DNA of 63,759 nucleotides, the filler included. It is 14 parts of 14 records of this genome, joined end to end, with 100 filler letters (N's around TTAATTAATTAA, not from the genome) between each part and the next. Parts side by side here need not be neighbours in the genome. Positions count along the whole stretch, not along the records: positions 13,054 to 23,667 come from SRR15195285_1030; 13 more parts are not named here. The stretch is one strand, 5' to 3'. Both the position numbers and the translations under genes were made by a program. Position 1 is the first letter of the stretch. Every line of letters starts with the position of its first letter. This document shows positions 8,440 to 24,016 of the stretch, piece by piece. The notes beneath the pieces are model-generated. The model was given only the letters and a program-made list of their open reading frames with translations. It was not told the origin of the DNA and did no database searches.

Positions 8440-11400
8440 ATGGCGGGCGATGATGGGATGATGATGGGCGCGGGGGAGCAACCATCGCTTGATCTGGCAG
8501 CCGCGTCGGCGCAGGCGCGGCAGGCGATTGAGCAGGACGAGGTCTTCGGCGAGCTCTTGGGGCTGCTTGGGGAGCCGGCCGCTGCGGCTGTGGAGGCGTC
8601 GATCGCAGCGCAGCCTGCTTCGGTTCTCCCGATGGCGCCGAGTGCCGTTGACGACAGCTTTGGCGGAGAAGCGGCGGGGGCGACGGCAGCGCGGGTGCAA
8701 AGTGCTACGGCAGCGGCGCGCGTGAGCACGGAGCTGGATAGTGCGGTCAGTCCGACTGTGAGCGACGATGGGTTTGCGTACGAGGAAGTTGAGGAGGTGT
8801 CCGACTCGGATGGTGACGAAAGTGATACATTGCACCTGTCCGGCGCCTCAACAGCCACGCCTGCAGCCTCACTACCAGCGGCGGCCGGGAAAACTACGGC
8901 GGCGACGTCGCGGTCCTTGTTCGCACGAGACAAGCGGCGATCGGCGGATGTGCCAGCCGGTGCTGCCAGTGTCGTGCGTGGTGGCGCCGCGGAATCCACG
9001 CAGACTCTGCATGAGCGATACACCGAGCTGTCAGCGAAAATATTCCGCAAGGAGCACACGCCCGCTGAAGCAGCCGAAGCGGAGCGACTGGCAAACCTGC
9101 TGGAAGCGCAAGACTCTGCGGCAGAGCAACCTGCATCAGAGGATGACCTGCCACAGCGCGTGGCCAGGACTCCGGCCAGCATCGAAACAAAGCAGCAGCC
9201 AGCGACACCCTCAGCCTCCAGATACGAAGGCAGTGAATCTGTGAAGCGGCCAAGGGCCTCCGAACAACAAAATGGAAGCCACGGGTTGGCTGGCGGAGTT
9301 GCAAAGGTGTTAGAGAACGGTGACACGCGCTTGAACTTCAAAGCGCGGGGGCAGCTCGGCATCAAATTTGGAAAGGATGCTGGTGGGCACAGCGTCATCA
9401 CCAGCCTCGTGAAAGGTGGTCTTGCTGAGACCATGTGCAAAGCACATGGTGTGTCGATTCAGGGCAGCGAACGGTTGGTCTACGTAGGGGATGTGGAGGT
9501 ATTTTCAATGCTCTCGTCGAAGACCACCGAGGTGCTTAAAGCTGCTGCTGTCGCTCGACCACTGGTGCTTACCTTTCGTCCCACCGCGAAGATGTCTCCA
9601 CGCCGGTCCCCGCGGAACTCACAAGGGTCGCAGCGTTCTGTTCGTGCTACTCCAGGCGCTGCAAGCACCTCTAAGCCGGTGCAAATGACAGACGGTGACG
9701 ATAATAGTGCGGTGAGCGAAGCTGAGCAGGCTCGTGAAGATGAAATGAAAGCGGAGATCGCCACGCTACAAGCGCTTCTCGCTGCGAAAACGCGAGAGAA
9801 CAGTGAACTAGCAGAGAAGCACAGCACGCTGGCGGAGGATAGCAAGCAGAAAGAGCAACAGGCTGAAGTGCTTGGGCAGGCACAGCAAGTTGCATCTGTG
9901 TTGCAATCACATCTGTCCAAACTTGACATGGAGAACGAAGAGCTGCGGGCACAGCTGCAGCAAGCGGAGGAGCGAAGTAGATCCGATGCACAAGTCGCGT
10001 TGGAGGTTGGAATGCTCGTCAGGGTGATCTCAGATAGTGAGCACATCGGAAGAGAAGGCACGGTCCACATGATTGGGGGCGATACCGTGACCGTACTATT
10101 TCCTTACGAAGGTGGTGCTGGAACAGAGCCGGCTGATGCGGACGAGATCATGATGAGTGTCGTGTGTCCAGAGGGAGTGCAAGCCGGCGACCCGATCGAG
10201 ATCACGACTGCCGAAGGCGAGACCCTTGAAGTGGTCTTGCCACCTGGGGTGGCTGCTGGGGAAGAGTTCACCGTTTCGAGTCCAGCCAAACCTCGAATGC
10301 ATCAAAAGGATGGTGTACAAGTGGAATTTCACCGGGACGAACTGGAACTAGTTGGTGAATCCGATGATGTCTCCAGCACGCCGCAGAAAGGTGACTCGAA
10401 GAAGAAAAAGAAGTCCATGAAGCGCTTCGACCCTTCCGGGTGGAAGAGCAAAAAGCAGCTTAAAGAAGAGGCAATGGAAAAGAAGCGCGAGGAAGAGGAT
10501 GCCGAGATGCAGCTGCTCGCAGAGCAGTCGTTTCACAAAGGCAAAGGGAAGATCAGCGCAGGCCAAGCTGACGCGTCGGCCAACAAACTGTCCAGGTGGA
10601 CTAAGCGGAAGGCCCCAGTGGAGAGCTCAGAGCCAGAGCTCAACCCGCTACAGGGCAGCTTTGAAAAGTCACTCTCTGCCCGGGCCCCAAGGATTCCTGC
10701 TGTCTCAGATTCTGCAACGAAGGCCTCGCCACCAAAGAAAATACGCGCCATAGGTATGGACCAGCTGGAAGCACAACTTAGTGGACTGCCGGACAAGGTA
10801 CAGGCAAATGTCCTTGAGCGGCTTCGCAATGAAGAGTTGCTTGTGTTTGAGGTACGAAGGCTGAAGCGAGAGGCACGTGAACGGCAACAACAGGACAATT
10901 TAGCCCGAGCGTGGCACGAGCAGTACAAAGATTTTGTGCAGCAGCTTACGCTTCTGGCAAAAGGCCGACTAGGGAAGGTAGAAGTGGATGAGGCTTTTTT
11001 AGGTGGGGAGCTAGCGGAGGAACAAGTTGCTGCGATCGAGCTCATACGCAAAAACATGCGGGCTGCGAAGGAGCGCGCCTCGCATTACCAGCGACAACTA
11101 AGCGAAACTGTCAAGACGAAAGAGAAGAACGAGACCATCCTGCATGAGATGGTGACGGATCCCAGTTTTGCTGCAGCAGGCTACGACCCAACTGGTTCGC
11201 CCGGTGGAGGCGATGAGGCCAGCATGCGGTCTGAGATCGCTCATCTGAAGCGTACGTTGAAAAACCGGGAGAAAATGGACCGCACGGCTAGGATAGTTTC
11301 CGCAGAAGCAGCGGTCGAACTGAACGAAATGCGAGAGAAACTGGAAGTTGCAGAGCACACAGCTAGCATGGCAAGGGACCAGGTGCGCAACGCTCGCCAG

Positions 11401-12714
11401 CAGCAGAGGAATGCTTTTGAGAAAATGCAAGAGGCTCAGACCGAGCTTCATCGGACAAGTGATATCGTCCAGAAGAAATGCGATGATATTGTGGCCTTGA
11501 AGAGCAAGAACAGTAGGTTACAGGATCAGATCGAGTCCATTAGCCACGACAGCAAGTCCCAGCGTCCACGGTTCATGCGCGATAAAAAGGGCAACACAGA
11601 CGAGTTGAAGAAACTACGTGACGAGCTGCACAACTCCACCAGCCAGCGTCAAATTTTGGAGAGACGGCTGGACAGAGCTCGACTTGACATCAAACGGTTG
11701 GAGGGTGAGCTGGAAGGCGGCCAGGTCGATTTCACAGGGAGCTTTTCAAATTCAGTGCTGGAGCGCCCGGGCGCCCGGCAGTCTTTCGCGTCCCCGTCAA
11801 TGTCACGTGTCAGCACGAAGAGCGAGTCCAGGAGAGTCAGCTGGCATGCTGATGATGTGGAGGAGACACTAGAATACGAACGAGGCTCAACCCCAGTATT
11901 GACCGGCAAGCGTGCGACAACAAGAACAACTGATAGAAGTAAGCGGGGAGGGGAGGAGGACCACTACGACAGTGAAATGACTCCAGAGGAGGCGAGGAAG
12001 GCAGGGCGCAAGAAGCAAATGGCTGCCAGGTTCGCTGCTCTCTCGGCAGAGAGTGACGGTGAGAGTGCGCTGCTAGACGGTCCAGGCCATGGTCGAGAGG
12101 ACGATGGTGACCTACTGGCTGAGGCTACAAGGATACGCGACAGCGTGATGACTAGCGGCCTTAATATGATGACTATCGACCCTAAAGCGGCGCAAGCCGA
12201 AGACCCCGAGGCGCTTGAGCAATATAGGGAATATGAGAGGGATCGTCACCTGACACGCTTAGATTCGATGTGGGAGGGTTGTACAGTCCTGAAGCACTCT
12301 ACCTCGCGCGGCCGATCAAAATCTCGACATCTGCAGCTCAGTGCAGACACGACAGAACTCACTCTTGGGAAGACGACGTCAAAGCAGGCCACAACCACCG
12401 TGCCACTGGACGACGTTGTGCGAGTGCACTTTGGATCGCACGGTAGCCCTGGGTTTCGGGCGCGCGCAGTGATGTTGGGGCTTGCCGAATGGCACTGTTT
12501 CAGTCTCGAGTGCGCCAACGGAGATTTCGTCGACATAAGCACGACATGCGACGAGGATGCTGAGACGTGGTGTATCGGGCTACGCGCGTTTGTGGACAAG
12601 CAGCAGGGCGTTTCACTGGGGCATCGTGCGCACGAGGATCCGTGGGTGTATAGGGCGCAACAGTTGTTGTGGCAACGGGCAACGATGAGAGTGACAGCCA
12701 GTCTCGACGCGTGA
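8440..12714 (+). CDS. Large scaffold protein: PDZ-like domain, coiled coils, SH3/KOW-like barrel, C-terminal PH domain
   Basis: 1428-aa open frame. PDZ-like LNFKARGQLGIKFG...ITSLVKGGLAE (~9330-9580); long heptad regions; PLC/Num1-type PH-like GCTVLKHSTSRGRSKSRHLQLSAD...CFSL...DAETWCIGLR (~12270-12600). Confidence 0.75.
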   Translation: MAGDDGMMMGAGEQPSLDLAAASAQARQAIEQDEVFGELLGLLGEPAAAAVEASIAAQPASVLPMAPSAVDDSFGGEAAGATAARVQSATAAARVSTELDSAVSPTVSDDGFAYEEVEEVSDSDGDESDTLHLSGASTATPAASLPAAAGKTTAATSRSLFARDKRRSADVPAGAASVVRGGAAESTQTLHERYTELSAKIFRKEHTPAEAAEAERLANLLEAQDSAAEQPASEDDLPQRVARTPASIETKQQPATPSASRYEGSESVKRPRASEQQNGSHGLAGGVAKVLENGDTRLNFKARGQLGIKFGKDAGGHSVITSLVKGGLAETMCKAHGVSIQGSERLVYVGDVEVFSMLSSKTTEVLKAAAVARPLVLTFRPTAKMSPRRSPRNSQGSQRSVRATPGAASTSKPVQMTDGDDNSAVSEAEQAREDEMKAEIATLQALLAAKTRENSELAEKHSTLAEDSKQKEQQAEVLGQAQQVASVLQSHLSKLDMENEELRAQLQQAEERSRSDAQVALEVGMLVRVISDSEHIGREGTVHMIGGDTVTVLFPYEGGAGTEPADADEIMMSVVCPEGVQAGDPIEITTAEGETLEVVLPPGVAAGEEFTVSSPAKPRMHQKDGVQVEFHRDELELVGESDDVSSTPQKGDSKKKKKSMKRFDPSGWKSKKQLKEEAMEKKREEEDAEMQLLAEQSFHKGKGKISAGQADASANKLSRWTKRKAPVESSEPELNPLQGSFEKSLSARAPRIPAVSDSATKASPPKKIRAIGMDQLEAQLSGLPDKVQANVLERLRNEELLVFEVRRLKREARERQQQDNLARAWHEQYKDFVQQLTLLAKGRLGKVEVDEAFLGGELAEEQVAAIELIRKNMRAAKERASHYQRQLSETVKTKEKNETILHEMVTDPSFAAAGYDPTGSPGGGDEASMRSEIAHLKRTLKNREKMDRTARIVSAEAAVELNEMREKLEVAEHTASMARDQVRNARQQQRNAFEKMQEAQTELHRTSDIVQKKCDDIVALKSKNSRLQDQIESISHDSKSQRPRFMRDKKGNTDELKKLRDELHNSTSQRQILERRLDRARLDIKRLEGELEGGQVDFTGSFSNSVLERPGARQSFASPSMSRVSTKSESRRVSWHADDVEETLEYERGSTPVLTGKRATTRTTDRSKRGGEEDHYDSEMTPEEARKAGRKKQMAARFAALSAESDGESALLDGPGHGREDDGDLLAEATRIRDSVMTSGLNMMTIDPKAAQAEDPEALEQYREYERDRHLTRLDSMWEGCTVLKHSTSRGRSKSRHLQLSADTTELTLGKTTSKQATTTVPLDDVVRVHFGSHGSPGFRARAVMLGLAEWHCFSLECANGDFVDISTTCDEDAETWCIGLRAFVDKQQGVSLGHRAHEDPWVYRAQQLLWQRATMRVTASLDA

Positions 12715-12953: not shown

Positions 12954-13389
12954 NNNNNNNNNNNNNNNNNNNNNNNNNNNNNNNNNNNNNNNNNNNNTTA
13001 ATTAATTAANNNNNNNNNNNNNNNNNNNNNNNNNNNNNNNNNNNNNNNNNNNNCATAATTACTATAGTAAAAATTCGGTGCGTCCCCAAATGGGCACAAA
13101 ATCTGACGTACTCCATTTAAGTCCTTCGATGTTTGGAGGTCGAGATCGAGACCCGCAGGGGGTCTCCCTGTACTGGTGTACTAGACCAGAATCCTGGATC
13201 ACAACATAGGTAGGTGTACAACCATTAGGCGAAGTCATTGAAGGCGCAGGCACTACTACAATCATCACTGTGTTTGGCTGCGCGACTACGCTGATTTGCA
13301 CAGGGTTGACCGTAACACTGAACATTGACGCGTACTACTATGGCGATGGATGTGCTAGCCAACAACATCATTCCTTTTTGTTCACAACA

Positions 13390-16300
13390 TCACGCCCATG
13401 GGGCCAACTCAAGGTCTTCTGGCTCTGCAGTGTTGTCGCTCGATGCCTTCAGAAGTATCTCATGTGGTTGGTGCTTCGTGCCGTGTCTCCAAGTAACTTT
13501 GTCGATGGTGAAAACAGAGTAGGGAACAAACAAAAACTCCTCCTCTCCCGGGATCATGGTATTCTTCTTCACTAGAGACGCGTTGTACATTGGGCTACGG
13601 GCATCCATAATGATTAGCCACATCATGTGCGAATCACCCGTGTTCGCCCTATTGATGAAACCTTGAGCTACCTCACGGTTGGTTGTAGTCGCAAGGTACA
13701 TTGGCACCCGGTACGTCTTTCCCTCGACAAAGAATCCGCGATGTGTGTTGTCAAATCCAGTGCCACGGTACACTTGCTTGCGTGGGATCATTGACTCTCT
13801 CATCAGGTCAGTTGCCGCGTCTGGAGGCATATCGCCGACGACACAAAGTGCATTAATGCAACGGGAAATCCTCACGGCGCGTCTCACCATTTGAGCATCA
13901 TCCCGGCGGAAAATATCATTCAACGCATCATACAAACGCTTATTGAGGCCGCCTCTCATAAATGACTCTGACGTCCACATCACCATTGCCTGTTCCTTTG
14001 GCCCTCCAGGCTTTGATTGCGCTTGCTGTCTCAGCTTGTCTGCCAAGGTCTCGCCGTGCGTCTCCCGTACCCCATTCACTGCGCAATACAGTTTCAACAG
14101 CTCGCGTACCTCAGTGAGCAATGAGTCTGTGTCAGCTATGATGTCCCGCCCAGCATGTCTATACTCACGAAGGTAATTAGAAGTTGCAAGTGTAACGGGC
14201 GCTGGTCTAGCACTATCGGCAGTAGTGTACTCGACTGACTCGTTTGCCGTCCAGCTGTTGTCTTGTGACTCTGCTGGCAACTTCAAGACAAGGTATAGCT
14301 GCGCCCCTGGGCCGATATTTGGATAGTCTGCCACTGTTCCATCGCGAAGCTCTTGATGCGAGATTAAAAGACGCTGTTGATTTGGTGGCGTGCCTGACAA
14401 CGCCTGAAGTTTCGTCTTGAGCATTGAAATGGAATCGAGACTGCTCACTGTCAGCGAATACGTGTGCCCATTAAGAGTTGCGATATCCACCGTGAAACTC
14501 ATCTCTTCAGCTGCTCCAGACAACAGCGGGACGAATCCATCGTCCATGTTGGATTGCCCAATATGCTTAATGAAAATAATTGTTCCTATGCCAAACACAA
14601 CTACGATGATAACCGGAGCAACAAAGCTGCCTGGACCGAGGTGATGGTGGTCAGCGTGACTATCATGCATGTCATTTGTTGTCCTACAATCTCCTGCGCG
14701 CCCACCAATGAGAGTCGAGTCATAATAATGCACGGCGCTTGTATCAAGCGACCCGAAAACTACCACCATCAAGCTTAGTGCCCCTGCAGCGATGCTGCAC
14801 GTTGGGTCAAGCGCCTGCTTGGATGCCGCAGTTCCAAAAAATAGCAAAGCGCACACGCCGTACACAAGCAGCGTGATCGAGAATATAGATTCCTGCGTCT
14901 GATTCTGCGCCAAGCATGTTCCCCAGAACGTGGTACTGACCCAAGCCAAAGAAGAAAGAAAAATCATTAATGCTACGGCGGATTTCTTGCCTCGATACAT
15001 AAAACTGTAACCTGCGACGCCTGTTGCAAACGCCGTGGCACCTGCGGAAAGACCATAGAAGCACGCCTCTGCGGTTGTGCAACACACTGGTCGGACTGCT
15101 AATTCAGCAGGGCTACGACCGCTGGAACCACTAATCAAGGATGAATTGTGCGTGTACACAGCGGTGATGTCGATTGAGGCAAATGTCGATACAGCTACAC
15201 TTATCACGCCGATGCCGACACAGAATGCCTGATCCCAGACGCGAACGGCAGAAAAAGCAGCACCTGGCGTTGTATATCGCGAAAACCAACCAACGGACGC
15301 GACAAAGCTCAGTGTCCCGTACACGCATAACGCCACTGCAAAAGCAGCTTCCTGTCTCCTATCTAGTATCAGACACGACGCCCAAAATGACAGACATATG
15401 ACACTCAGCGGGAGCAATGATGCTGTGGCACCCAGTGTTATTGCAACAGCACCATGCTTCGAAATCGCGTGTACGGGCGAGTTCTCTCCTAGCTGCCCTT
15501 TGACTCTTAGCACAACTATACTGCCAATTGCTACGACACTGCCAGCCAGACCATCGATTCCATAGAACCACAGCTCATTGGCAGTGCAGTGTGCAGCTGC
15601 CTCATCGAAGACACTACAGGTGGCGTTGGAACCAATTACCGAGCTATCATACTTGAAGACCGTCACAAGCTCGATCAATGCAAATGTCAACATGCCTAAG
15701 CTCAGCAAGCCGATAGAAATGCAGCTGACAGCCAAGCCATTGCCCGCTCTGTATATCAACACGATGCTCCATGCAGCTTGCACCACAGCTGTGATGCAAA
15801 GCAACACTGAAAAAGCGGGTTCTTGCGAAGCGTCCAACGCAATGCAAGACGACACGAAGGCTACGCAGATGAATGATAGCCACGCCGTCATGACGGTACG
15901 TGTCATTTGCAGACCATCTGGTAGACAGAAGACTTGGCAGCCCGTCACCACAGCGAGTGTCAGCGCGATACCCCCGAAGAACCACAGCTCGTTCTCCTCG
16001 CACGCGGTGGGGCAGCTTGTGGCGTTTTGAGCCTCTTTTCCCCAGTCTGAGATCAACCCGCGATCGAGCGCAAACACAACGTAGATCTCGAGCGAGGATG
16101 AAACGACAATTAGTGCACTCATGACCATCAGTGCCACACTAACACGTTTTGCAGTCTCGTTTGGCTGCCCGAAACGAGGCAACTTAGCCACAGCTGTGAA
16201 GATGGATCCAGTTTGCTTCTGCTGCCCCTCACCTCGCTCAATCCACGTATTGCCAACCAGAGCAAGGATTCCATAGATGCAAATCGCAACCGCGAAAGAA

Positions 16301-17667
16301 GGCTCTACCGTATGGTCTTCTGTTGTGCATCTCAGCCAAAATGCCGCTAAGATGATACAAAGGGGCATTATGGTGATCGCAACGACGATCGGCACTGCGG
16401 AAATGCAGTGATCCATTTCCCTGCACCGAGCTACCGTCCACCCGAGACCAACACTCACGGCTACTGAGACCGCGATCAACGTCATTGTTTTGTAGAACCC
16501 ATACTCGAAGTCCAGTGCATCTATTGATGAGCACGCAGAGCACTCAGCAGGATGCTGGCGATATCGCCCGGGACCGCAGTCAAAGCAACTTGTGGCTCTC
16601 GTCTTGACGTTTGCACGTCCAGGAGGGCAAGTGCGGCAGTGCGTACTGTTGAATGCTGGTTGGTAGGTAAGTGCGGGACAGTCAACACATGAGCTCTGAC
16701 CGGCGTTTGATACTCGACCAGGTGTACAGCCCGTGCATGCAACAGCGGCAGAGCCGGCAACAGAGCCATCTTTGCATGCGATGCAGGTGGAGCTTTTGTG
16801 CACGGGCTGATATTTGCCTGGATCACAGTCCAGACACGCACTGCGGTCATCGTTCGACATTCTCCCACTTGTGCAAGCCTTGCACTCCGTAGCTCCTCCC
16901 CGAGCAACTGAGCCTGACTCGCAGTCAATGCAACTGCTACTCCGTTGCGTGGGCTGATACTGGCCATTTGGGCAGCTCTCGCAATATGACCCGGAATGAG
17001 AAAACTTTCCAGCAGGACAACTGACACAAGACGTGTGCCCAGAGTTCGAAGTTTGCCCCGCGGAACATGAAGTGCAGGTACAAGCACTAGAACCAGAGAT
17101 GTGGCCCGTCGAACAACCTATACACCGCGAGCTTCCTGAGTTCGAGTACATTCCCGGTTGGCACGAGTCGCACCGTGTGTTGCCGTTCTCGTGGTACCCA
17201 CAGCTGCAGTCGTTGCACGAGCACGCCCCTGACGCAGAGATTCTGCCACTGCTGCATCTGGAGCAGGAGGAACTCCTCTTGCTGGAATACTGCCCTGCAG
17301 AGCAAGATGTGCATGACGATGCGCAGGAAGACGAGTGTGTCCCACACGCACACGCCTTCTCTTTGCCATCACCAGAAAACACACCAGAGCCACAAAACGC
17401 GGCGCTGCCAGCACAGTACGCCCCCGGCGCGCAACAGTGGCAGTCGCACCCGAATACACAGGTTACATCATCTGAGCATTCGCCTGAGGGGCAGTCTCCC
17501 ATCGATCGCGGCAAACTGCCGCCATCTGCGGCAAACGCTTGCTGATCATCAAGTCTCTGGAGGTGTGTCGCATTGTACGTGACGTTCCCCCCCAGCGTGA
17601 CGCCGAGGACATGTGCCACGAGCACGGTGAAAGCGCATGGCCACCCCACGGCAAACATCCACGACAT
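13390..17667 (-). CDS. Receptor-like protein: signal peptide, Cys-rich (ephrin-receptor-like/GCC2-GCC3) repeats, ~17 TM, ubiquitin-like domain, R-S-E class ADP-ribosyltransferase domain
   Basis: Intronless ~1425-aa ORF. CxxCxxG repeats at ~17500-16520; TM region 16500-14570; Ubl FTVDIATLNGHTYSLTVSSLDSISMLKTKLQALSGTPPNQQRLL...LYLVLKL at 14500-14280; ART motifs VYRG (~13770), YLATTT (~13690) and GEEEFLFVPYSVF (~13540). Confidence 0.85.
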   Translation of the reverse strand: MSWMFAVGWPCAFTVLVAHVLGVTLGGNVTYNATHLQRLDDQQAFAADGGSLPRSMGDCPSGECSDDVTCVFGCDCHCCAPGAYCAGSAAFCGSGVFSGDGKEKACACGTHSSSCASSCTSCSAGQYSSKRSSSCSRCSSGRISASGACSCNDCSCGYHENGNTRCDSCQPGMYSNSGSSRCIGCSTGHISGSSACTCTSCSAGQTSNSGHTSCVSCPAGKFSHSGSYCESCPNGQYQPTQRSSSCIDCESGSVARGGATECKACTSGRMSNDDRSACLDCDPGKYQPVHKSSTCIACKDGSVAGSAAVACTGCTPGRVSNAGQSSCVDCPALTYQPAFNSTHCRTCPPGRANVKTRATSCFDCGPGRYRQHPAECSACSSIDALDFEYGFYKTMTLIAVSVAVSVGLGWTVARCREMDHCISAVPIVVAITIMPLCIILAAFWLRCTTEDHTVEPSFAVAICIYGILALVGNTWIERGEGQQKQTGSIFTAVAKLPRFGQPNETAKRVSVALMVMSALIVVSSSLEIYVVFALDRGLISDWGKEAQNATSCPTACEENELWFFGGIALTLAVVTGCQVFCLPDGLQMTRTVMTAWLSFICVAFVSSCIALDASQEPAFSVLLCITAVVQAAWSIVLIYRAGNGLAVSCISIGLLSLGMLTFALIELVTVFKYDSSVIGSNATCSVFDEAAAHCTANELWFYGIDGLAGSVVAIGSIVVLRVKGQLGENSPVHAISKHGAVAITLGATASLLPLSVICLSFWASCLILDRRQEAAFAVALCVYGTLSFVASVGWFSRYTTPGAAFSAVRVWDQAFCVGIGVISVAVSTFASIDITAVYTHNSSLISGSSGRSPAELAVRPVCCTTAEACFYGLSAGATAFATGVAGYSFMYRGKKSAVALMIFLSSLAWVSTTFWGTCLAQNQTQESIFSITLLVYGVCALLFFGTAASKQALDPTCSIAAGALSLMVVVFGSLDTSAVHYYDSTLIGGRAGDCRTTNDMHDSHADHHHLGPGSFVAPVIIVVVFGIGTIIFIKHIGQSNMDDGFVPLLSGAAEEMSFTVDIATLNGHTYSLTVSSLDSISMLKTKLQALSGTPPNQQRLLISHQELRDGTVADYPNIGPGAQLYLVLKLPAESQDNSWTANESVEYTTADSARPAPVTLATSNYLREYRHAGRDIIADTDSLLTEVRELLKLYCAVNGVRETHGETLADKLRQQAQSKPGGPKEQAMVMWTSESFMRGGLNKRLYDALNDIFRRDDAQMVRRAVRISRCINALCVVGDMPPDAATDLMRESMIPRKQVYRGTGFDNTHRGFFVEGKTYRVPMYLATTTNREVAQGFINRANTGDSHMMWLIIMDARSPMYNASLVKKNTMIPGEEEFLFVPYSVFTIDKVTWRHGTKHQPHEILLKASSDNTAEPEDLELAPWA

Positions 17668-18481
17668 GCGCACAAAGATATATTTAATGGATGATCGTTC
17701 TCCTGTCGCTACTGTCGGAAGCTGAGGTGCGCGTCACAGATAGTCCAGTATAGACCCGCGCCAGCAGCTGGGGTCGCGTCTCCCGCACCATCGTGCGCGG
17801 CCGGGTATCGCCGGCGCGTTCACCAGCCAAGTCAGAACTTGCATTTGATAAACTCGTATCAATAGCCGTGTTGCACTATACAAACATACGAGTTTGTGGC
17901 AAAAATGTAAAATCGCAGTATCAATTTCCCGAAGGAGCGAACGGGTGGGCTGGGCTCGATCGACTCATCCACTCAAGCGACCCCGGAATTCCCCACGGTT
18001 GGGAGCAAGGCGCTGCTGGCGGGCGGGCTGCGCTGGCTGATAGAGAGGTTGTTGCATCAAAGAGCTGTGTGCACATTGGAAAGGCTCTGCCCTCTGGCTG
18101 GCTGGCGGGTTGGCGCTGTGTGGGGAGGCTGTTTGGGGAGGGGGGGCGGGCTGTGCGTTGTGGGGGACGCGGGCTGGGGGTGTTGCCAACTGGGGTGCTG
18201 GCGTGGAGAATTGCTGGCGAGGGGCGCTGGGCTGAGCTGGTCTTGCTCGCAGATAGCGAGCAGCGCTGGTTAGCTCTGCCTCTGGCTGGGTGCGTGGAAC
18301 CGTGTGGGGCACAGAGGAGGGGCGGCTATTGCTTGGCCGTTGCGGGTCAGGATCTGGTGTTGCCAGCCGGCTGCTGTCACGCTGCACTTGCTGAGGAGGA
18401 CCCTGGGCTGAGCTGGGCTTGCTCTGGCTGGCTGGAGAGCTGTGTGGCCAAAAAAGGGAGTCTGGATAAGGGTGCGAGAGG

Positions 18482-20041
18482 ATGGATTTCCATCTGGACC
18501 GCGCGGACAAGAAGCTGAAGGACCAGCGCAAGCTGCGCGAGCAGAAGCGCAAGGCGGAGCTCGCCAAGCAGCGGCTCGTCAAGGAGAAGGCGCGCAAGCA
18601 GGCGGAGGAGATGGAGCAGCGGCTGGCCGCCGCACGTATGGAGAAGCAGCAGGAGATTGAGGACGCAGAGCGCCGGAAGATGGAGGAGGACTTGCTCACG
18701 GGAGGCATCGAGTACGGCGAGGTGTTGCGCGCGACCGCGCTGGAGGGCGAGGGCTCGAGCGACAAGGTAGTGCTGCCGCAGTCGGCGCTGGAGAAGCTTA
18801 CCAGCGCCGGAGTCTTTGACCAGGGCGGCGCGATGTTCTTCGAGTTGACAACAAGGGAGGGCGGCCGGACCCACTGCGGCGTGCGTGAGTTCGTCGCGGA
18901 AGACGGCACGATCGGCCTTCCACCGCGCGTGGCGACGTGCCTCGGCGCCGTGACAACCGCTGACGACCCGAACGCAGACACCTGGTCGTCGCGCGTCAAC
19001 GTGAAGTACGTTCGGCTCGACAAAGGCACAAAGGTGGTCCTGCAGCCGCACACAGCTGACTTTCAAAAGGATGCTGACGAGGCCACTGGCGCGGCGGCGC
19101 GGGTAGGTGCAGAGGTGGTCGAGGTGGACGAAGCTGTGGTCGAGACTCTGGTCGCGATGGGATTTGACCGGAATGGGAGCAAGCGTGCCGTCATGGCAGT
19201 AGAGAGGGATGCATCGACACGGTCTGGGAGCGCAGCCATCACGCGCGATGAAGTAGTGCCTCGCGCTGTCCAGTGGTTGATGGCTCCTGTGCGCACCACG
19301 TCCGAGCTGTCGGAGCCGCTCGCCGAAGGGCTCCAAGCGGTCTTGGAGCGCAACCTGCATAATTGCACCGCGCTGACTGTCGGCGACACAATCACCGTGC
19401 AGCACGCGGGGAAGCAGTACGAACTCTCCGTCCAGCAGTTGGAGCCAGATTCGAAAGTAAGCTTAGTGGACACGGAGCTTGAACTGGAGATCGCGCCATC
19501 GCGAGAGTACGAAGCAGCTATGGCCGCGAAGGCAGAAGAGGAAGCGAGAGCTGCGGCGGAGGAAGAAGCCCGCCGTGCAGCTGAGCGGGCTGAGCGCGCC
19601 GCGGCCGAGACGGCAGCTGCTGCTGAGAAACAGGCGCGGGTCGAGGCTGCCGAGCGGCGGCAGGCGCTCGCAGCGGAGGCACGTGCACGGTTAGAACGTG
19701 TGCCTGAGCCAGGTAGCGCTGAGACTGAGGGTGTGGTCAGCTGCGCGGTGAGACTGCCTGATGGCAGTCGCTTAACACGGCGGTTACGTGCAAGCGATTG
19801 CACAGCGCTGCTCTTCGACCTGATTGATGGTTCGGGCTGCGAAGACCCGTTGATCGCGGAGCCGTACCAATTGACTACCCGCTACCCGCGTGTTGTCGTT
19901 AGGGACACTCGCGCGCACGGGAATGCAATCTCGCTCGACGAGATGGGTTTAGGCGGAGAGAAGCAGGCGCAGTTTTTCCTGGAGGCAGCCGAGCCTCCTG
20001 CGACGCCTCCCGAGGTCGCAATGGAGGTCGCACCCTCATAA
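18482..20041 (+). CDS. UFD1-domain protein with inserted UBA domain and C-terminal UBX domain (putative p97/Cdc48 adaptor)
   Basis: UFD1 motifs SDKVVLPQSALEKL, THCGVREFVA, KGTKVVLQP, LERNLHNCTALTVGDTI and VSLVDTELELE. UBA: VETLVAMGFDRNGSKRAV...AVQWL. UBX: AVRLPDGSRLTRR...YQLTTRYPR. Confidence 0.85.
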   Translation: MDFHLDRADKKLKDQRKLREQKRKAELAKQRLVKEKARKQAEEMEQRLAAARMEKQQEIEDAERRKMEEDLLTGGIEYGEVLRATALEGEGSSDKVVLPQSALEKLTSAGVFDQGGAMFFELTTREGGRTHCGVREFVAEDGTIGLPPRVATCLGAVTTADDPNADTWSSRVNVKYVRLDKGTKVVLQPHTADFQKDADEATGAAARVGAEVVEVDEAVVETLVAMGFDRNGSKRAVMAVERDASTRSGSAAITRDEVVPRAVQWLMAPVRTTSELSEPLAEGLQAVLERNLHNCTALTVGDTITVQHAGKQYELSVQQLEPDSKVSLVDTELELEIAPSREYEAAMAAKAEEEARAAAEEEARRAAERAERAAAETAAAAEKQARVEAAERRQALAAEARARLERVPEPGSAETEGVVSCAVRLPDGSRLTRRLRASDCTALLFDLIDGSGCEDPLIAEPYQLTTRYPRVVVRDTRAHGNAISLDEMGLGGEKQAQFFLEAAEPPATPPEVAMEVAPS

Positions 20042-20448
20042 TAAAGTCACGGCAAGTATATGAGCGTACAACTCCGCAACAAGGTTCGACTTCGAGCGAG
20101 TGGTTCCTCATTCTATCTCATTAGATCTATTGGTACCACCAAGGAAGGTCTCTAACAGCCTAAGTCTAATAGAATAGCTTCGGCTCGTCGCGTCATCGCT
20201 CAATGACTCTTCCGCACCAGAAGGATCCGCGCAGCTAGAGGGGACGTAGGCTAGGCAGCTTGAACCACCCCTACTCTACACAGCAAACAATGGCACTGGA
20301 TCCGCTCACAAGGCCATGTGAGCATTTTGCCCCGGTCAACTGGATTGTCACTGAGTGCTTGAAAAAGCGCTACCATAATTTCGGTTGAATGTATGCATTG
20401 ACTGTACAGCTGTACCTGGTACCATCCATAGTCAAAATGGTACTGCTG

Positions 20449-20472
20449 GTGTGTGTGTGTGTGTGTGTGTGT
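20449..20472. repeat. (GT)n microsatellite
   Basis: About 12 GT units in the intergenic region between convergent genes. Confidence 0.9.
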
Positions 20473-20883
20473 ATGGCGGGTTTGGGCGTGTGGGAGGTTG
20501 CGTCCCGCATAGTCTTGCCCACTGCATAGCCCACCATCATTGGAGCTCCGTAGAGCCCGCGCACGTGTTTTGGGATATGATGAGGCATGAAAATCTATCT
20601 GAGTCTTGTAAGAAAATCGCGATGCGAGTTGATGTTGCGCTGAATTGGAACGGAGTCTCCTCTCTTGCTGACCCTGCATCCGCGGCAAGGTTGCTTTCAT
20701 GAGAAAATGATTGAATCTCTCCCATGGCCTGGGGAAAACCATTGGCTGCAGGCACACGACTAGGAGACAAGCGTCGCGAGGTATCCAAGTAGCAAATGAA
20801 CACGCGTGCGCTTGTACTTGCGGACGTGAGAACAAGTTACTGCTTGACTACAATCATGCACGTCCGCGTTAGCGTATCGTATG

Positions 20884-23584
20884 TCAATGGACATCCCGTA
20901 CGATCTTGCGTGCGATAGCTTCCCACGCCTTCCGCTCGCGTGGCGAACACCCTGCCCCATTGATCCACCCAGCCTCGCCGCCGCCACTACACGCATAAAA
21001 ATAAGGCGCCAGCCCGATCAGTTGCGGTTCGGACGAAGCCCATTCCATTGTCGCTGCTGCCCAGCGCGCTATACCTCTTGCGCAATCGATGTCGCCACAC
21101 CAAGCCTTGGCTGAACAATTGAACTTCTTGTCGGTGCAGTTTGCGTGAGTGGTAGTGTTACTGACTGTGTAGCCCGGCGGGATATATAGAGCGCGTTGCG
21201 CCGCAGACATCCGTGGGAAGACCTGTGAACGGTACAGGGCTGCAACTGTGTCCACATCCTTGGCGTGATTTGGGTACCTATCACATACGAACGTATGTGC
21301 ACGCACACGTGAACACGACGTCGATAGTATAGTACGCTGTGATGACAAACACACGCGAGTTTCCCGCAAAAACAAAGAAATGTGAGTTCTTACATGTCGA
21401 TCGAAATCCAGTCGAGCGACGGTGGCACCATTTGAAGCTGGTAGTGCTCAGGGTTTGAAAACACAGTCCACGCCTCGTTGTACCACACAATAGACTGTGG
21501 CAACGCTCGTTTAATCCTGGCTGCAACCATCTCGATCGTTCCCGCCGATACCCCACCAAAGATAAGCTCGTCACCCAGCCAAAACCCGGAAACTGTGCCG
21601 TTTTTCAGAAATGGGGCCCATCTTGCAGAGGCCGCGTGCCAGGAAGCATTCCAGCCAGGCTTGAGCACCACGGGCTTCGATTTCGTCTCGAAGAACAGGT
21701 GCTTTAAGTTGACCAGTACGGTCGCGCCGAGGGAATGAGCTACGATTATGCTCTCTGGATCATGAAGCTCGAACGCGAGATTGAATTGCTCTGCATTTGC
21801 CTTCATGTCTGCAGTATCTGTCAATGAATACCATCCAAAATACCGCAAGTAGTTTCGGCTGCTGGTGTTGCTGGTGTTGCTGGTGTTGCTGCCGCCGCCG
21901 CCGCCGCCGCCGCCACTGATACTGCGCACCGTTGACCGCACCACCGTTGCTTGAACAATCAAAATTGCGTCTTGGTCATCTGTAGCGGGCACATGTAGAG
22001 AGACTGCTGCTCCTGCTGCTCGCACCGTTATTGGGTTGCCAACAGCGCTGCCATTGGTGGGTGAGAGCCACGTGACTGTGTAGCTGCTGCCTCTGGGAAG
22101 CGAAACCATTGCGTTGGAAATAGCTGTAGAGTTTGCAAGATAACACACGGCCACAGTGGGGAGTGCACTAAGACACGGCTGGGTGGTACCAGTATCGGCT
22201 GCCAACATCTGTGGCTGCGGTGTCGCGGAGCTTAGGGAGGCAATCAGCCCATAACGCCTCCAGGACGCGTCGCATTGTTGCAACAAGTCGAAACGGCGCT
22301 GCACTGTCCGCTGCATCTTCGATGTGGAAGTGACCACCAGAGGTGACAATCGTCCAGCACATCCGTCGTAGCTCCAGCGAATCGACGACACCGTTGCCCA
22401 TTTCATCCACGTTCACTGGGCGTTTGTATTGCAAGTGCGCACCGATGTAAGTCGATGCCGCTGCCACCTCCGAGAACCCGGTCTTCCCGAGGTGCTTATT
22501 CACCAGGTCTACTGCGGACGAGGTGTAGAACGACTCCTCATCACCAGTAATGGAAGAATAGGTCACAAGCCGGTCTAACCGAAGTTCTTTTAGCAAGTTT
22601 TTGACGAACATACCCCAGTATGTGCCAAAGGAACTGTTTGCCGGCGACTGCATGTGCTCATTTTCCACCTCGTACACCACGTTATATCGCGCGGTTTCTC
22701 TCACAAGCCGTTCGGCGTAGCGAGCCTGGTAGTATCGCAAACGCGGCGATGCGGCCCAGTGATAAAACGCAGGGACCCCAGAACCAGCAGACCCGGGGGG
22801 CATCTCGAGACTGTTGATGTTGCAATCTCCGCACCATGGATTATGCGAGTACGCGGTGCCATCAGTAAGTCCACATCGGTCGAAGAGCATGACTTCAGAC
22901 GTTATATTCAGCGCGCTTGCGGTGGCGATGGAATCTGTCAGCCGGGTCCAGTACGTTTCGTTCCACACAGACAAGTTCAGCTTGCCGCCCTCGCCCGCCC
23001 GTTGCCACGGCCACATCGCATCTGGGTCCCACGGGAGGAAATGCCACACTCGCGCGTAGCTGACGCCGTTCTGGTGCAACTGCTGTATCTGGGCGGTGTA
23101 GTTACCGAGGTTCTTGCCAGTGGCAGAGTCCACGCCAGTTGTCGTGGGCACGATGGCGCCGTGCGACGCCAGAAGCACTGCGCGACGAGTGTTCGCGTCC
23201 TGGAAGTAGTGAGCGTTGCTCGGATGGATCCGAAGGAAGGAGTGGACCTCGGCTGCGGCACTACCTGCTCCGTTCAATAGCGGTACCACAAACAGCTGCT
23301 GAGTTCTGCATTCTAGAATTGCTGCTGCTACTAGGCAAGACAGATCAAGTTTGGCTCACTGGGTGTTTGCACTACAGTAATCGATGTGACATGGAGGTAG
23401 TACCAGTTGGTGTCACGGCAGAATAAGACGCCGGGGCAGCAGCACTGCCGGTGCTGGGTGAGGCGGGTGCTGCCCTCCTCAGTGTACCTCCAGAAAAACT
23501 TGGTCGTACATATACGGCAGCGCAGAGCAGCAGCAGTAGCAGCATTAACAGCCGCTGGCAGATCGCGAGCAGGGCGCGGGTCAT
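20884..23584 (-). CDS. Secreted glycoside-hydrolase-like protein with two TIM-barrel-like modules (clan GH-A/GH5-DUF4038-like, a beta-sandwich, then a second barrel)
   Basis: Signal-like MTRALLAICQRLLMLLLLLLCAAV. LRIHPSNAHYFQD, YEVENEH (acid/base) and PVNVDEMG (nucleophile); YTVTWLSPTNG sandwich; second module GFWLGDEL, WYNEA, DWISIDM|YPNH (intron ~21395-21280). The junctions near 23300-23400 and 22200-22270 are uncertain. Confidence 0.65.
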
Positions 23585-24016
23585 CGCCAGCCCTCCCGGC
23601 GTGCGATGCCCGATGCGTCCGTCGCCGGGCCTCACTGGGGGGTCAGACTGTGGGCCACTGGAAGGGTNNNNNNNNNNNNNNNNNNNNNNNNNNNNNNNNN
23701 NNNNNNNNNNNTTAATTAATTAANNNNNNNNNNNNNNNNNNNNNNNNNNNNNNNNNNNNNNNNNNNNAGCCACGAGAGTACCTACGCTGATACATCTGTA
23801 GTCAACATGAGTCTCTGTATATCGGTACCAATCTGGGCACTGAAAACTTAAGGATTCCCATTTGGGTACTTACGATATATCGAATTCGAATATATATATA
23901 CGCCGCGCTACTACTACTACTACTACCCGCTAGACCCGGTATATGTAGTGCAATCAGCGACAGCAGGCGTGGCCCACCTGCTACATGTAGAAGAGGCGGC
24001 CGGGATCTGCCAACGG

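Follow-up and report, generated by a model that had tools for sequence, protein, structure and literature searches.

A predicted protist membrane protein with a ubiquitin-like domain and a C-terminal R-S-ExE ADP-ribosyltransferase, and the large family of its catalytic domain

Eukaryotic ADP-ribosyltransferases (ARTs) of the R-S-E clade are best known as vertebrate ecto-enzymes, and intracellular mono-ADP-ribosylation is mostly ascribed to enzymes of the PARP type. Here, a gene from a marine protist is described that encodes a different arrangement. It lies on the minus strand at positions 13390..17667 of a 63,759-nucleotide stretch of DNA (the window), which joins 14 parts from 14 records of one genome end to end, with 100 filler letters between each part and the next, and it falls within the part taken from SRR15195285_1030 (positions 13,054 to 23,667). 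The protein, P0001, is probably best explained as a protist membrane protein with a Cys-rich outer part, 17 helices and, on the cytosolic side, a ubiquitin-like (Ubl) domain followed by an arginine-specific ART. The features on which this reading draws are as follows, from the N- to the C-terminus of the protein.

13390..17667 (-), whole open reading frame (ORF), 1425 codons plus stop, read from the first ATG (P0001)
17587..17667 (-), hydrophobic signal peptide or signal anchor, residues 1-27, from hydropathy
16489..17586 (-), predicted extracellular domain, residues 28-393, with 16 CxxCxxG repeats and 49 Cys, Ephrin_rec_like or mastigoneme-like
16423..16488 (-), first predicted transmembrane (TM) helix, TM0, residues 394-415, from hydropathy
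15904..16422 (-), four-helix repeat unit R1, residues 416-588, from repeat homology
15463..15903 (-), four-helix repeat unit R2, residues 589-735, from repeat homology
14989..15462 (-), four-helix repeat unit R3, residues 736-893, from repeat homology
14542..14988 (-), four-helix repeat unit R4, residues 894-1042, its last helix being TM17, from repeat homology
14275..14502 (-), Ubl domain (PF00240), residues 1056-1131, with the Arg42 equivalent R1099 (codon 14371-14373) and no Gly-Gly tail
13393..14196 (-), predicted R-S-ExE ADP-ribosyltransferase domain, residues 1158-1425, from fold and motifs
13765..13767 (-), motif I Arg, R1301, invariant in 45 of 45 aligned sequences
13684..13686 (-), motif II position, T1328, Ser in at least 90% of relatives
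13537..13545 (-), motif III E-E-E, E1375-E1377, the first and third Glu invariant

By its motifs and modelled fold, and not as a member of the Pfam family proper, the C-terminal domain is assigned to the R-S-E clade of ARTs with an ExE signature, of which it is a new divergent member. The three motifs from which an ART was originally predicted are all present, with YRG at residues 1300-1302, LATTT at 1325-1329 and EEE at 1375-1377, and the invariant columns across 45 aligned sequences are W1231, R1301, G1302, R1320, F1337, E1375, E1377 and L1379. PF01129 (ART) is the best-matching Pfam model for the domain, and the family profile matches the Arg-specific toxin Vis (E 2.1e-4), with YRG, ATS/STS and ExE in register. 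The cholera-toxin-like fold, also part of the original prediction, is borne out by structure prediction and comparison. The AlphaFold2 (AF2) model of the domain, built with the family alignment, has a predicted local distance difference test score (pLDDT) of 90.0 and a predicted template modelling score of 0.87. Foldseek matches it to 155 PDB chains at E<=0.001, all of them R-S-E ARTs among the matches listed, the best being Vis (1.6e-9), followed by a Listeria ART-ARH toxin, HopU1, Certhrax, XopAI, ExoT/S, C3, ART2.2 and SpvB. In VIA-align, the toxin of a toxin/immunity pair (6drh_B) scores Z 14.1 (174 residues aligned, root-mean-square deviation 3.1), Vis 13.5, HopU1 13.3, ExoS 12.9 and rat ART2.2 12.3, the last with 198 residues aligned over model residues 19-279. 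The ART is predicted to be catalytically intact and, since an ExE signature goes with arginine as the acceptor, is probably arginine-specific. The same association is stated for SidE in the accessible part of an earlier account (PMC8120803).

The Arg-specific ARTs Vis (4xzj), the 6drh toxin, HopU1, ExoS/ExoT and ART2.2 thus share the fold of the P0001 domain at Z 12-14, with the motif I Arg and the ExE aligned, and rat ART2.2 also has its N-terminal helical subdomain in common. They differ in sequence, with only 14-18% identity to the P0001 domain, and carry S-T-S at motif II, where the family of P0001 has A-T-S/T. The toxins among them are secreted, whereas the ART of P0001 is a domain of a predicted eukaryotic membrane protein, and its family has an invariant WTS motif and a conserved C-terminal end (...DN..EPEDLPLAPW) of its own. 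A near-invariant tail, D-N ... L-P ... P-W, occupies the extreme C-terminus (P0001 residues 1411-1425) in 149 of 153 family proteins and is modelled with high confidence; it may complete the fold, act in autoinhibition or provide a docking motif. No second ART gene was found in the window.

The relatives of this domain are numerous. A HMMER scan with residues 1140-1425, covering 1.84 billion cluster representatives (clusters at 50% identity), returned 895 at E<=1e-3 and 429 at E<=1e-10, and in 149 of 153 family proteins the ART ends five residues or fewer from the C-terminus. As a C-terminal module, the ART of this large family is promiscuous in its partners. A Pfam scan of 150 representatives (40 scanned at E<=0.01, 110 at E<=1e-4) identified as N-terminal partners protein kinase (five proteins), ankyrin repeats (six) and SidE_PDE (six), together with partners seen once each, namely ubiquitin (P0006), UBA (P0009), caspase (P0032), DUF285, Sushi, PH, SAP, p25-alpha, clathrin repeat, WD40, SAM and Agenet. 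The homologue search with P0001 additionally gave a PX-ART protein (P0003). Most of the short representatives lack a partner, and many of these are probably fragments. Relatives with recognisable partner domains look eukaryotic, several of the partners being typically eukaryotic. A search of prokaryotes with one peptide pattern of limited sensitivity, across one genome from each of 185,579 species, gave 79 pattern matches, none of which was confirmed as a relative, and none of 150 pattern matches in JGI metagenome contigs was confirmed as an orthologue locus. The original prediction was silent on this large protist family and on its links to ubiquitin (Ubl, UBA and SidE_PDE fusions).

A quick IQ-TREE phylogeny of 118 ART domains with SH-aLRT as its only support measure, from which 35 of the 153 were left out (fewer than 220 profile positions), places P0001 in a 99%-supported clade with P0002, P0006, P0024, P0053, P0066, P0028, P0078 and P0127. 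Clade members with a substantial N-terminal part are all membrane proteins, with TM helices N-terminal to the ART. P0006 consists of a short stub, one TM helix, a Ubl and the ART, and P0028, P0078 and P0127 each begin with a signal or anchor (P0127 may be cut at its start), followed by a Cys-containing ectodomain of ~300 residues, TM helices and the ART; P0024, P0053 and P0066 have only 118, 1 and 5 residues upstream of it. Elsewhere in the tree are a Sushi-TM-ART protein (P0039) and a DUF285-TM-ART protein (P0041), and these ectodomain-TM-ART relatives, within the clade and outside it, fit a 'receptor-like ART' theme. Proteins with SidE_PDE occupy at least four places in the tree, and two of them adjoin the P0001 clade with 89% support, which is below the star threshold.

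The domain directly upstream of the ART is a ubiquitin fold, in agreement with the original prediction, matching PF00240 over residues 1062-1130 (E 1.7e-10, 41 bits vs a cut-off of 25.4). Aligned to ubiquitin, it keeps the equivalents of L8, R42 (R1099) and V70, with I44 replaced by Leu and K48 by Gln. Its end reads ...LVLKLPAES where ubiquitin has RLRGG, and the chain continues into the ART. The Ubl is, on this reading, an integral domain and not a modifier, and would not be conjugatable through a Gly-Gly end because it terminates in KLPAES rather than RLRGG. In all three Ubl-bearing family members the Ubl stands directly before the ART, and R1099 is invariant in all three. In P0002, an insert of ~88 residues (~1229-1317) between Ubl and ART looks by eye like a divergent second ubiquitin-like domain.

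Upstream of the Ubl, 17 helices were mapped, 16 of which exceed the hydropathy threshold of 1.5, in line with the roughly 17 hydrophobic helices first estimated. They are laid out as TM0 followed by four homologous four-helix units (1 + 4x4 = 17), a repeat structure on which the original prediction was silent. Pairwise BLAST among R1-R4 gives 23-34% identity over 89-159 residues with E 1e-6 to 1e-17, values that refer to a four-sequence database searched without composition correction. When only the four P0001 units are used to build a profile, it detects exactly four units in P0002 and no unit in the 152 remaining family proteins. No relatives of the unit were found among proteins of 82-303 or 30-782 residues, nor was there a Pfam match at E<=1 or a usable Atlas match, and the best PDB match had E 1.1. 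Each unit has short A-B loops and a loop of 25-34 residues between helices C and D; these C-D loops contain 2, 2, 3 and 1 Cys in R1-R4, and three of them also an NxS/T sequon. An ion site marked by a conserved acidic residue of helix C in each repeat was considered and dropped, two of the four positions being Gln and Leu in P0002 (by eye).

A signal peptide and an odd helix count had originally been taken to place the Ubl and ART in the cytosol, and the loops support that orientation. Loops predicted to be inside have 15 K/R and 6 D/E in 92 residues, and those predicted to be outside 7 K/R and 21 D/E in 139 residues. The 366-residue N-terminal domain has 49 Cys, vs 3 in the 388 residues after the last helix. 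On the basis of the loop charge, the Cys distribution and most of the sequons, the Ubl and ART are inferred to be cytosolic and the N-terminus to be outside, and the homologous repeats, with their Cys- and sequon-bearing C-D loops, suggest an even number of helices per unit. The failed AF2 model of the TM domain, discussed below, shows 17 long helices and is not counted as independent support.

The N-terminus has a hydrophobic stretch at residues 3-27 (Kyte-Doolittle peak 1.84), and 16 CxxCxxG motifs follow between residues 76 and 367, with a spacing of mostly 15-17 residues, so that both the signal and the repeats that had been noticed in the sequence are present. Among 5000 shuffles of the same residues the number of such motifs averages 0.8, with a maximum of 5. 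The repeats match Pfam Ephrin_rec_like (PF07699; E 3.8e-9, 36.6 bits vs a cut-off of 23.1) in four stretches of P0001, and the mastigoneme protein Mst1 (8tx1) matches residues 163-381 (E 2.8e-16). The P0001 ectodomain is alike to both in its repeats; Mst1 is a flagellar hair protein, whereas in P0001 the repeats would form the outer part of a membrane enzyme.

That these parts belong to one chain is indicated by the gene itself. The minus strand is open across 13390-17673, with its first ATG at 17667, preceded by an in-frame stop at a distance of 20 codons; with the base composition of the window, a stop-free run of 1425 codons has a chance probability of ~10^-23.6. The single ORF was thus predicted with the right coordinates from the outset. 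The full-length homologue P0002 (55% identity, 100% coverage), from a separate source, agrees with P0001 in the order of its parts across 100% of P0001 residues 390-1425 and in the ectodomain. Identity between the two is highest in the ART (81%), followed by the ectodomain (68%), the Ubl (66%), the TM units (49-61%) and TM0 (36%), and the catalytic residues and R1099 are unchanged. P0002 is also longer at its N-terminus by ~180 residues, in which no obvious signal is seen; this may represent a gene-model start problem. Contigs from RNA libraries (three runs) cover the P0001 ORF in eight non-overlapping, colinear stretches, together ~2065 of 4278 bases (~48%), one of which extends 225 bases beyond the stop codon; none covers the first 420 bases (17248-17667), and the uncovered parts are uninformative. 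Such contigs give no strand, ends or transcript unity, and DNA carry-over is possible. The coverage is fragmentary, and a single transcript is a prediction from the ORF. No joint or indel inside the ORF was seen in these three RNA runs and one DNA run.

Taken together, these features suggest a mechanism in which a signal sequence would direct ~340 residues of disulfide-rich Ephrin_rec_like repeats outward or into a lumen, the membrane domain would consist of one helix and four tandem homologous four-helix units, and the cytosolic side would carry the non-conjugatable Ubl and then the predicted intact R-S-ExE mono-ADP-ribosyltransferase. By analogy, the ART would draw on cytosolic NAD+ and transfer ADP-ribose to Arg residues of proteins at the membrane, with the outer and membrane parts in control. 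'Receptor' signalling, a part in immunity, control by an extracellular cue and the choice of substrate are inferences by analogy. Receptor kinases and receptor guanylyl cyclases likewise unite an ectodomain, a membrane-spanning region and a cytosolic enzyme in one chain, as is predicted for P0001, and single-pass forms exist in the ART family (P0039, P0041). These receptors have one helix and another chemistry, whereas P0001 has a predicted 17 helices.

Several observations weigh against this reading. PF01129 scores 13.3 bits against whole P0001 and 17.1 bits against the domain alone, short of its cut-off of 22.3, which is reached by 9 of the 150 family representatives (best 46.3 bits). At motif II the family A-T-S aligns to the S-T-S of Vis, and P0001 and P0002 have A-T-T, which appears to be a conservative variant of the motif. 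Helix D3 (residues 870-890) is weakly hydrophobic, lies below the threshold and was placed by homology with the other three repeats; one NxT sequon (NET) falls in a loop assigned to the inside; and the AF2 model of the TM domain, from a two-row alignment, has a pLDDT of 36.5 and is unusable as a fold. The N-terminus has no positive n-region, and the signal peptide and TM helices were judged by hydropathy. P0002 is the only full-length homologue among the 5.8 billion clusters searched. Nothing in the analysis shows control of the enzyme by the ectodomain.

Of the alternatives, two concern the structure of the protein itself. The ORF could be a gene-model artefact, in which two or more genes, or a pseudogene, are read through as one. 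The partial RNA coverage, in eight separate pieces and with an uncovered start, would allow for this, but the same order of parts in P0002, the 1425 open codons, and the RNA and DNA runs without joint or indel make it extremely improbable. P0001 could instead be an ecto-enzyme like the vertebrate ARTCs, with its topology reversed or its helix count even and the ART facing outward. Vertebrate R-S-E ARTs are extracellular (PMC7955679, accessible part), ART2.2 is a good structural match (Z 12.3), and the weakly hydrophobic D3 leaves room for a different count. Set against these are the scarcity of Cys in the last 388 residues (3, vs 49 in the N-terminal domain), the enrichment of K/R in loops that would then be outside, the presence of a ubiquitin fold, which is not expected outside the cell, and the Cys- and sequon-bearing C-D loops of the homologous repeats, which favour an even number of helices per unit. 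An outward-facing ART is very unlikely on this evidence. The resemblance to vertebrate ecto-ARTs (ARTC1-5) lies in their being eukaryotic, membrane-attached R-S-E ARTs with PF01129 as the best model. Those enzymes are GPI (glycosylphosphatidylinositol)-anchored or secreted and face outward, according to the accessible text of PMC7955679, and are typified by an extracellular catalytic domain with conserved disulfides, whereas the ART of P0001 is predicted to lie in the cytosol, following 17 TM helices, and is nearly devoid of Cys.

Two further alternatives accept the architecture and assign it another function, and both are considered unlikely. In the former, P0001 is an NAD+-consuming immune or cell-death effector, whose surface domain senses a pathogen or virus and whose ART, acting mainly as an NADase or as a toxin-like modifier of some essential target, then kills or arrests the cell. 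Bacterial toxins and effectors are the closest structures, the family is large and diverse, and the same ART module is fused to caspase (P0032), kinases and ankyrin repeats, a combination often... typical for conflict systems. However, the intact ExE and motif I Arg are the signature of a protein Arg-transferase and not of a dedicated NADase, no partner immunity or eraser gene (ARH, macro) was seen among the 16 neighbouring ORFs, and nothing ties the gene to infection. In the latter, the 16-helix pseudo-tetrameric core is a transporter, channel or scaffold, the Ubl is a built-in signal for its sorting or endocytosis, and modification of R1099 by the ART adjusts it in cis, giving a self-regulating machine rather than a ligand receptor. 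The four homologous units in one chain, conserved in P0002, amount to far more membrane than an anchor requires. The Ubl keeps the L8, V70 and R42 equivalents, with Leu for I44, R1099 lies next to the Ile44-patch equivalent, and the Ubl is immediately upstream of the ART in every Ubl-bearing member. The four-helix unit is without a detectable relative, however, leaving transport to the helix count alone, and clade relatives carry the same ART with only 1-4 TM helices. The membrane protein with a cytosolic Ubl and ART, under possible control from outside, is retained as the preferred reading.

Within this preferred reading, the substrate of the ART is a separate question, for which the family provides a lead. 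Six relatives, apparently eukaryotic, combine SidE_PDE (phosphodiesterase, PDE) with the ART, namely P0029 (which also has a myosin head), P0036, P0052, P0115, P0148 and P0153, with the PDE N-terminal to the ART, a domain order as in Legionella SdeA. For the PDE of P0052 there are matches to lpg1496 of Legionella (E 1.7e-14) and to the PDE domains of SdeC, SdeA, SdeD and SidE, with the two His-containing motifs kept in the alignment. No description of eukaryotic SidE_PDE-ART proteins was found in the literature search. SidE_PDE has one known role, the processing of Arg42-ADP-ribosyl-ubiquitin, as far as the available portions of PMC8120803 and PMC10951314 describe it. The preferred substrate of the P0001 ART is accordingly guessed, with about one chance in three, to be the Arg42 equivalent of a ubiquitin fold, either R1099 of its own Ubl or free ubiquitin. 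The guess relies by analogy on this one known role of SidE_PDE, on the fusion of the same ART family to Ubl, UBA and, repeatedly, SidE_PDE, and on the placing of an Arg-keeping ubiquitin fold directly before the ART in the P0001 subclade. A preprint (10.1101/2025.03.20.644192) reports ADP-ribosylation of bait-fused ubiquitin by a SidE ART, followed by cross-linking to neighbouring proteins through the PDE, a precedent that makes the chemistry of the wider proposal given below feasible in principle.

Other results count against such a substrate. Most family partners (kinase, ankyrin, PX, caspase and others) are unrelated to ubiquitin, so a ubiquitin-fold substrate is not implied family-wide, and the ART family has no sequence similarity to the SdeA mono-ADP-ribosyltransferase (mART) at E<=0.01. 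SdeA has no row among the PDB matches of the family profile at E<=10, the SdeA matches of P0052 cover the PDE part only, and SdeA is absent among the 50 matches listed by Foldseek or VIA, an absence from a list that is not an exclusion. Prediction of a complex of ART, Ubl and NAD scored 0.00 in two runs, which speaks neither for nor against binding. P0001 resembles the Legionella SidE family in having a predicted R-S-ExE ART, in the relatives that carry a PDE in the SdeA order (PMC8120803, accessible part), and in that SidE acts on Arg42 of ubiquitin and P0001 carries a ubiquitin fold with an Arg42 equivalent. It differs in that SidE has a PDE, whereas P0001 has no Pfam match to SidE_PDE and its ART family no sequence match to the SdeA mART. 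Since it has no PDE domain, P0001 is not SidE-type by its predicted architecture. A wider proposal is that marine protists have an endogenous SidE-like pathway, in which ARTs would modify Arg42 of ubiquitin folds and fused PDEs would make phosphoribosyl-serine links; the ART of P0001 would then modify its own R1099, so that a surface or membrane sensor switches a built-in ubiquitin-like signal or links covalently to nearby proteins without E1/E2/E3. This proposal is a long shot.

The combination of a Cys-rich ectodomain, 1 + 4x4 helices, a Ubl and an ART, which had not been recognised as described when it was first noticed, was found undescribed in a full-text literature search that took in the accessible parts of PMC8195603, PMC7955679, PMC3482391, PMC8120803, PMC10951314 and two preprints; the main ART review, which possibly describes related protist architectures, was outside its scope. 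The interest of P0001 rests on the large toxin-type ART family and the unexpected link to SidE-type PDE and ubiquitin folds. A large protist family of this type, predicted to be cytosolic in its membrane-anchored members, would represent a hardly studied signalling or defence chemistry, in which some members are coupled to surface domains in the manner of receptor kinases. The repeated ART-SidE_PDE fusion, together with the Ubl of P0001, suggests that phosphoribosyl-ubiquitin chemistry may exist natively in eukaryotes. Within the accessible parts of the literature covered, this chemistry is described for Legionella effectors only, and if it is native in eukaryotes, the Legionella system may derive from such hosts. 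P0001 provides a test case, with one soluble Ubl-ART fragment and one Arg and two Glu as key residues.

The surroundings of the gene are those of a eukaryotic genome. The window is gene-dense eukaryotic DNA of 50-64% G+C, and the ORFs nearby code for unremarkable eukaryotic proteins (GH32, CAP-Gly, calpain, kinase, photolyase, metallophosphoesterase). The stretch with the ART gene was found in 19 public runs from 17 studies, all labelled as seawater or marine metagenomes apart from one plain 'metagenome', and three of these are the RNA libraries. At 18482-20041 (+), ~800 bp from the start of the ART gene, a divergent neighbour combines UFD1_N1, UFD1_N2 and UBX, an unusual, ubiquitin/p97-adaptor-like set; its adjacency to a Ubl-ART gene may be a coincidence, as adjacency means little in eukaryotes. 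The convergent ORF at 8440-12714 (+) encodes 1424 residues with no Pfam family at E<=1e-5, and looks by eye long, charged and coiled-coil-like. The window also contains 13 pairs of 44-base N runs, the runs of each pair 12 bases apart, all situated between ORFs, and one of these pairs lies just downstream of the ART gene.

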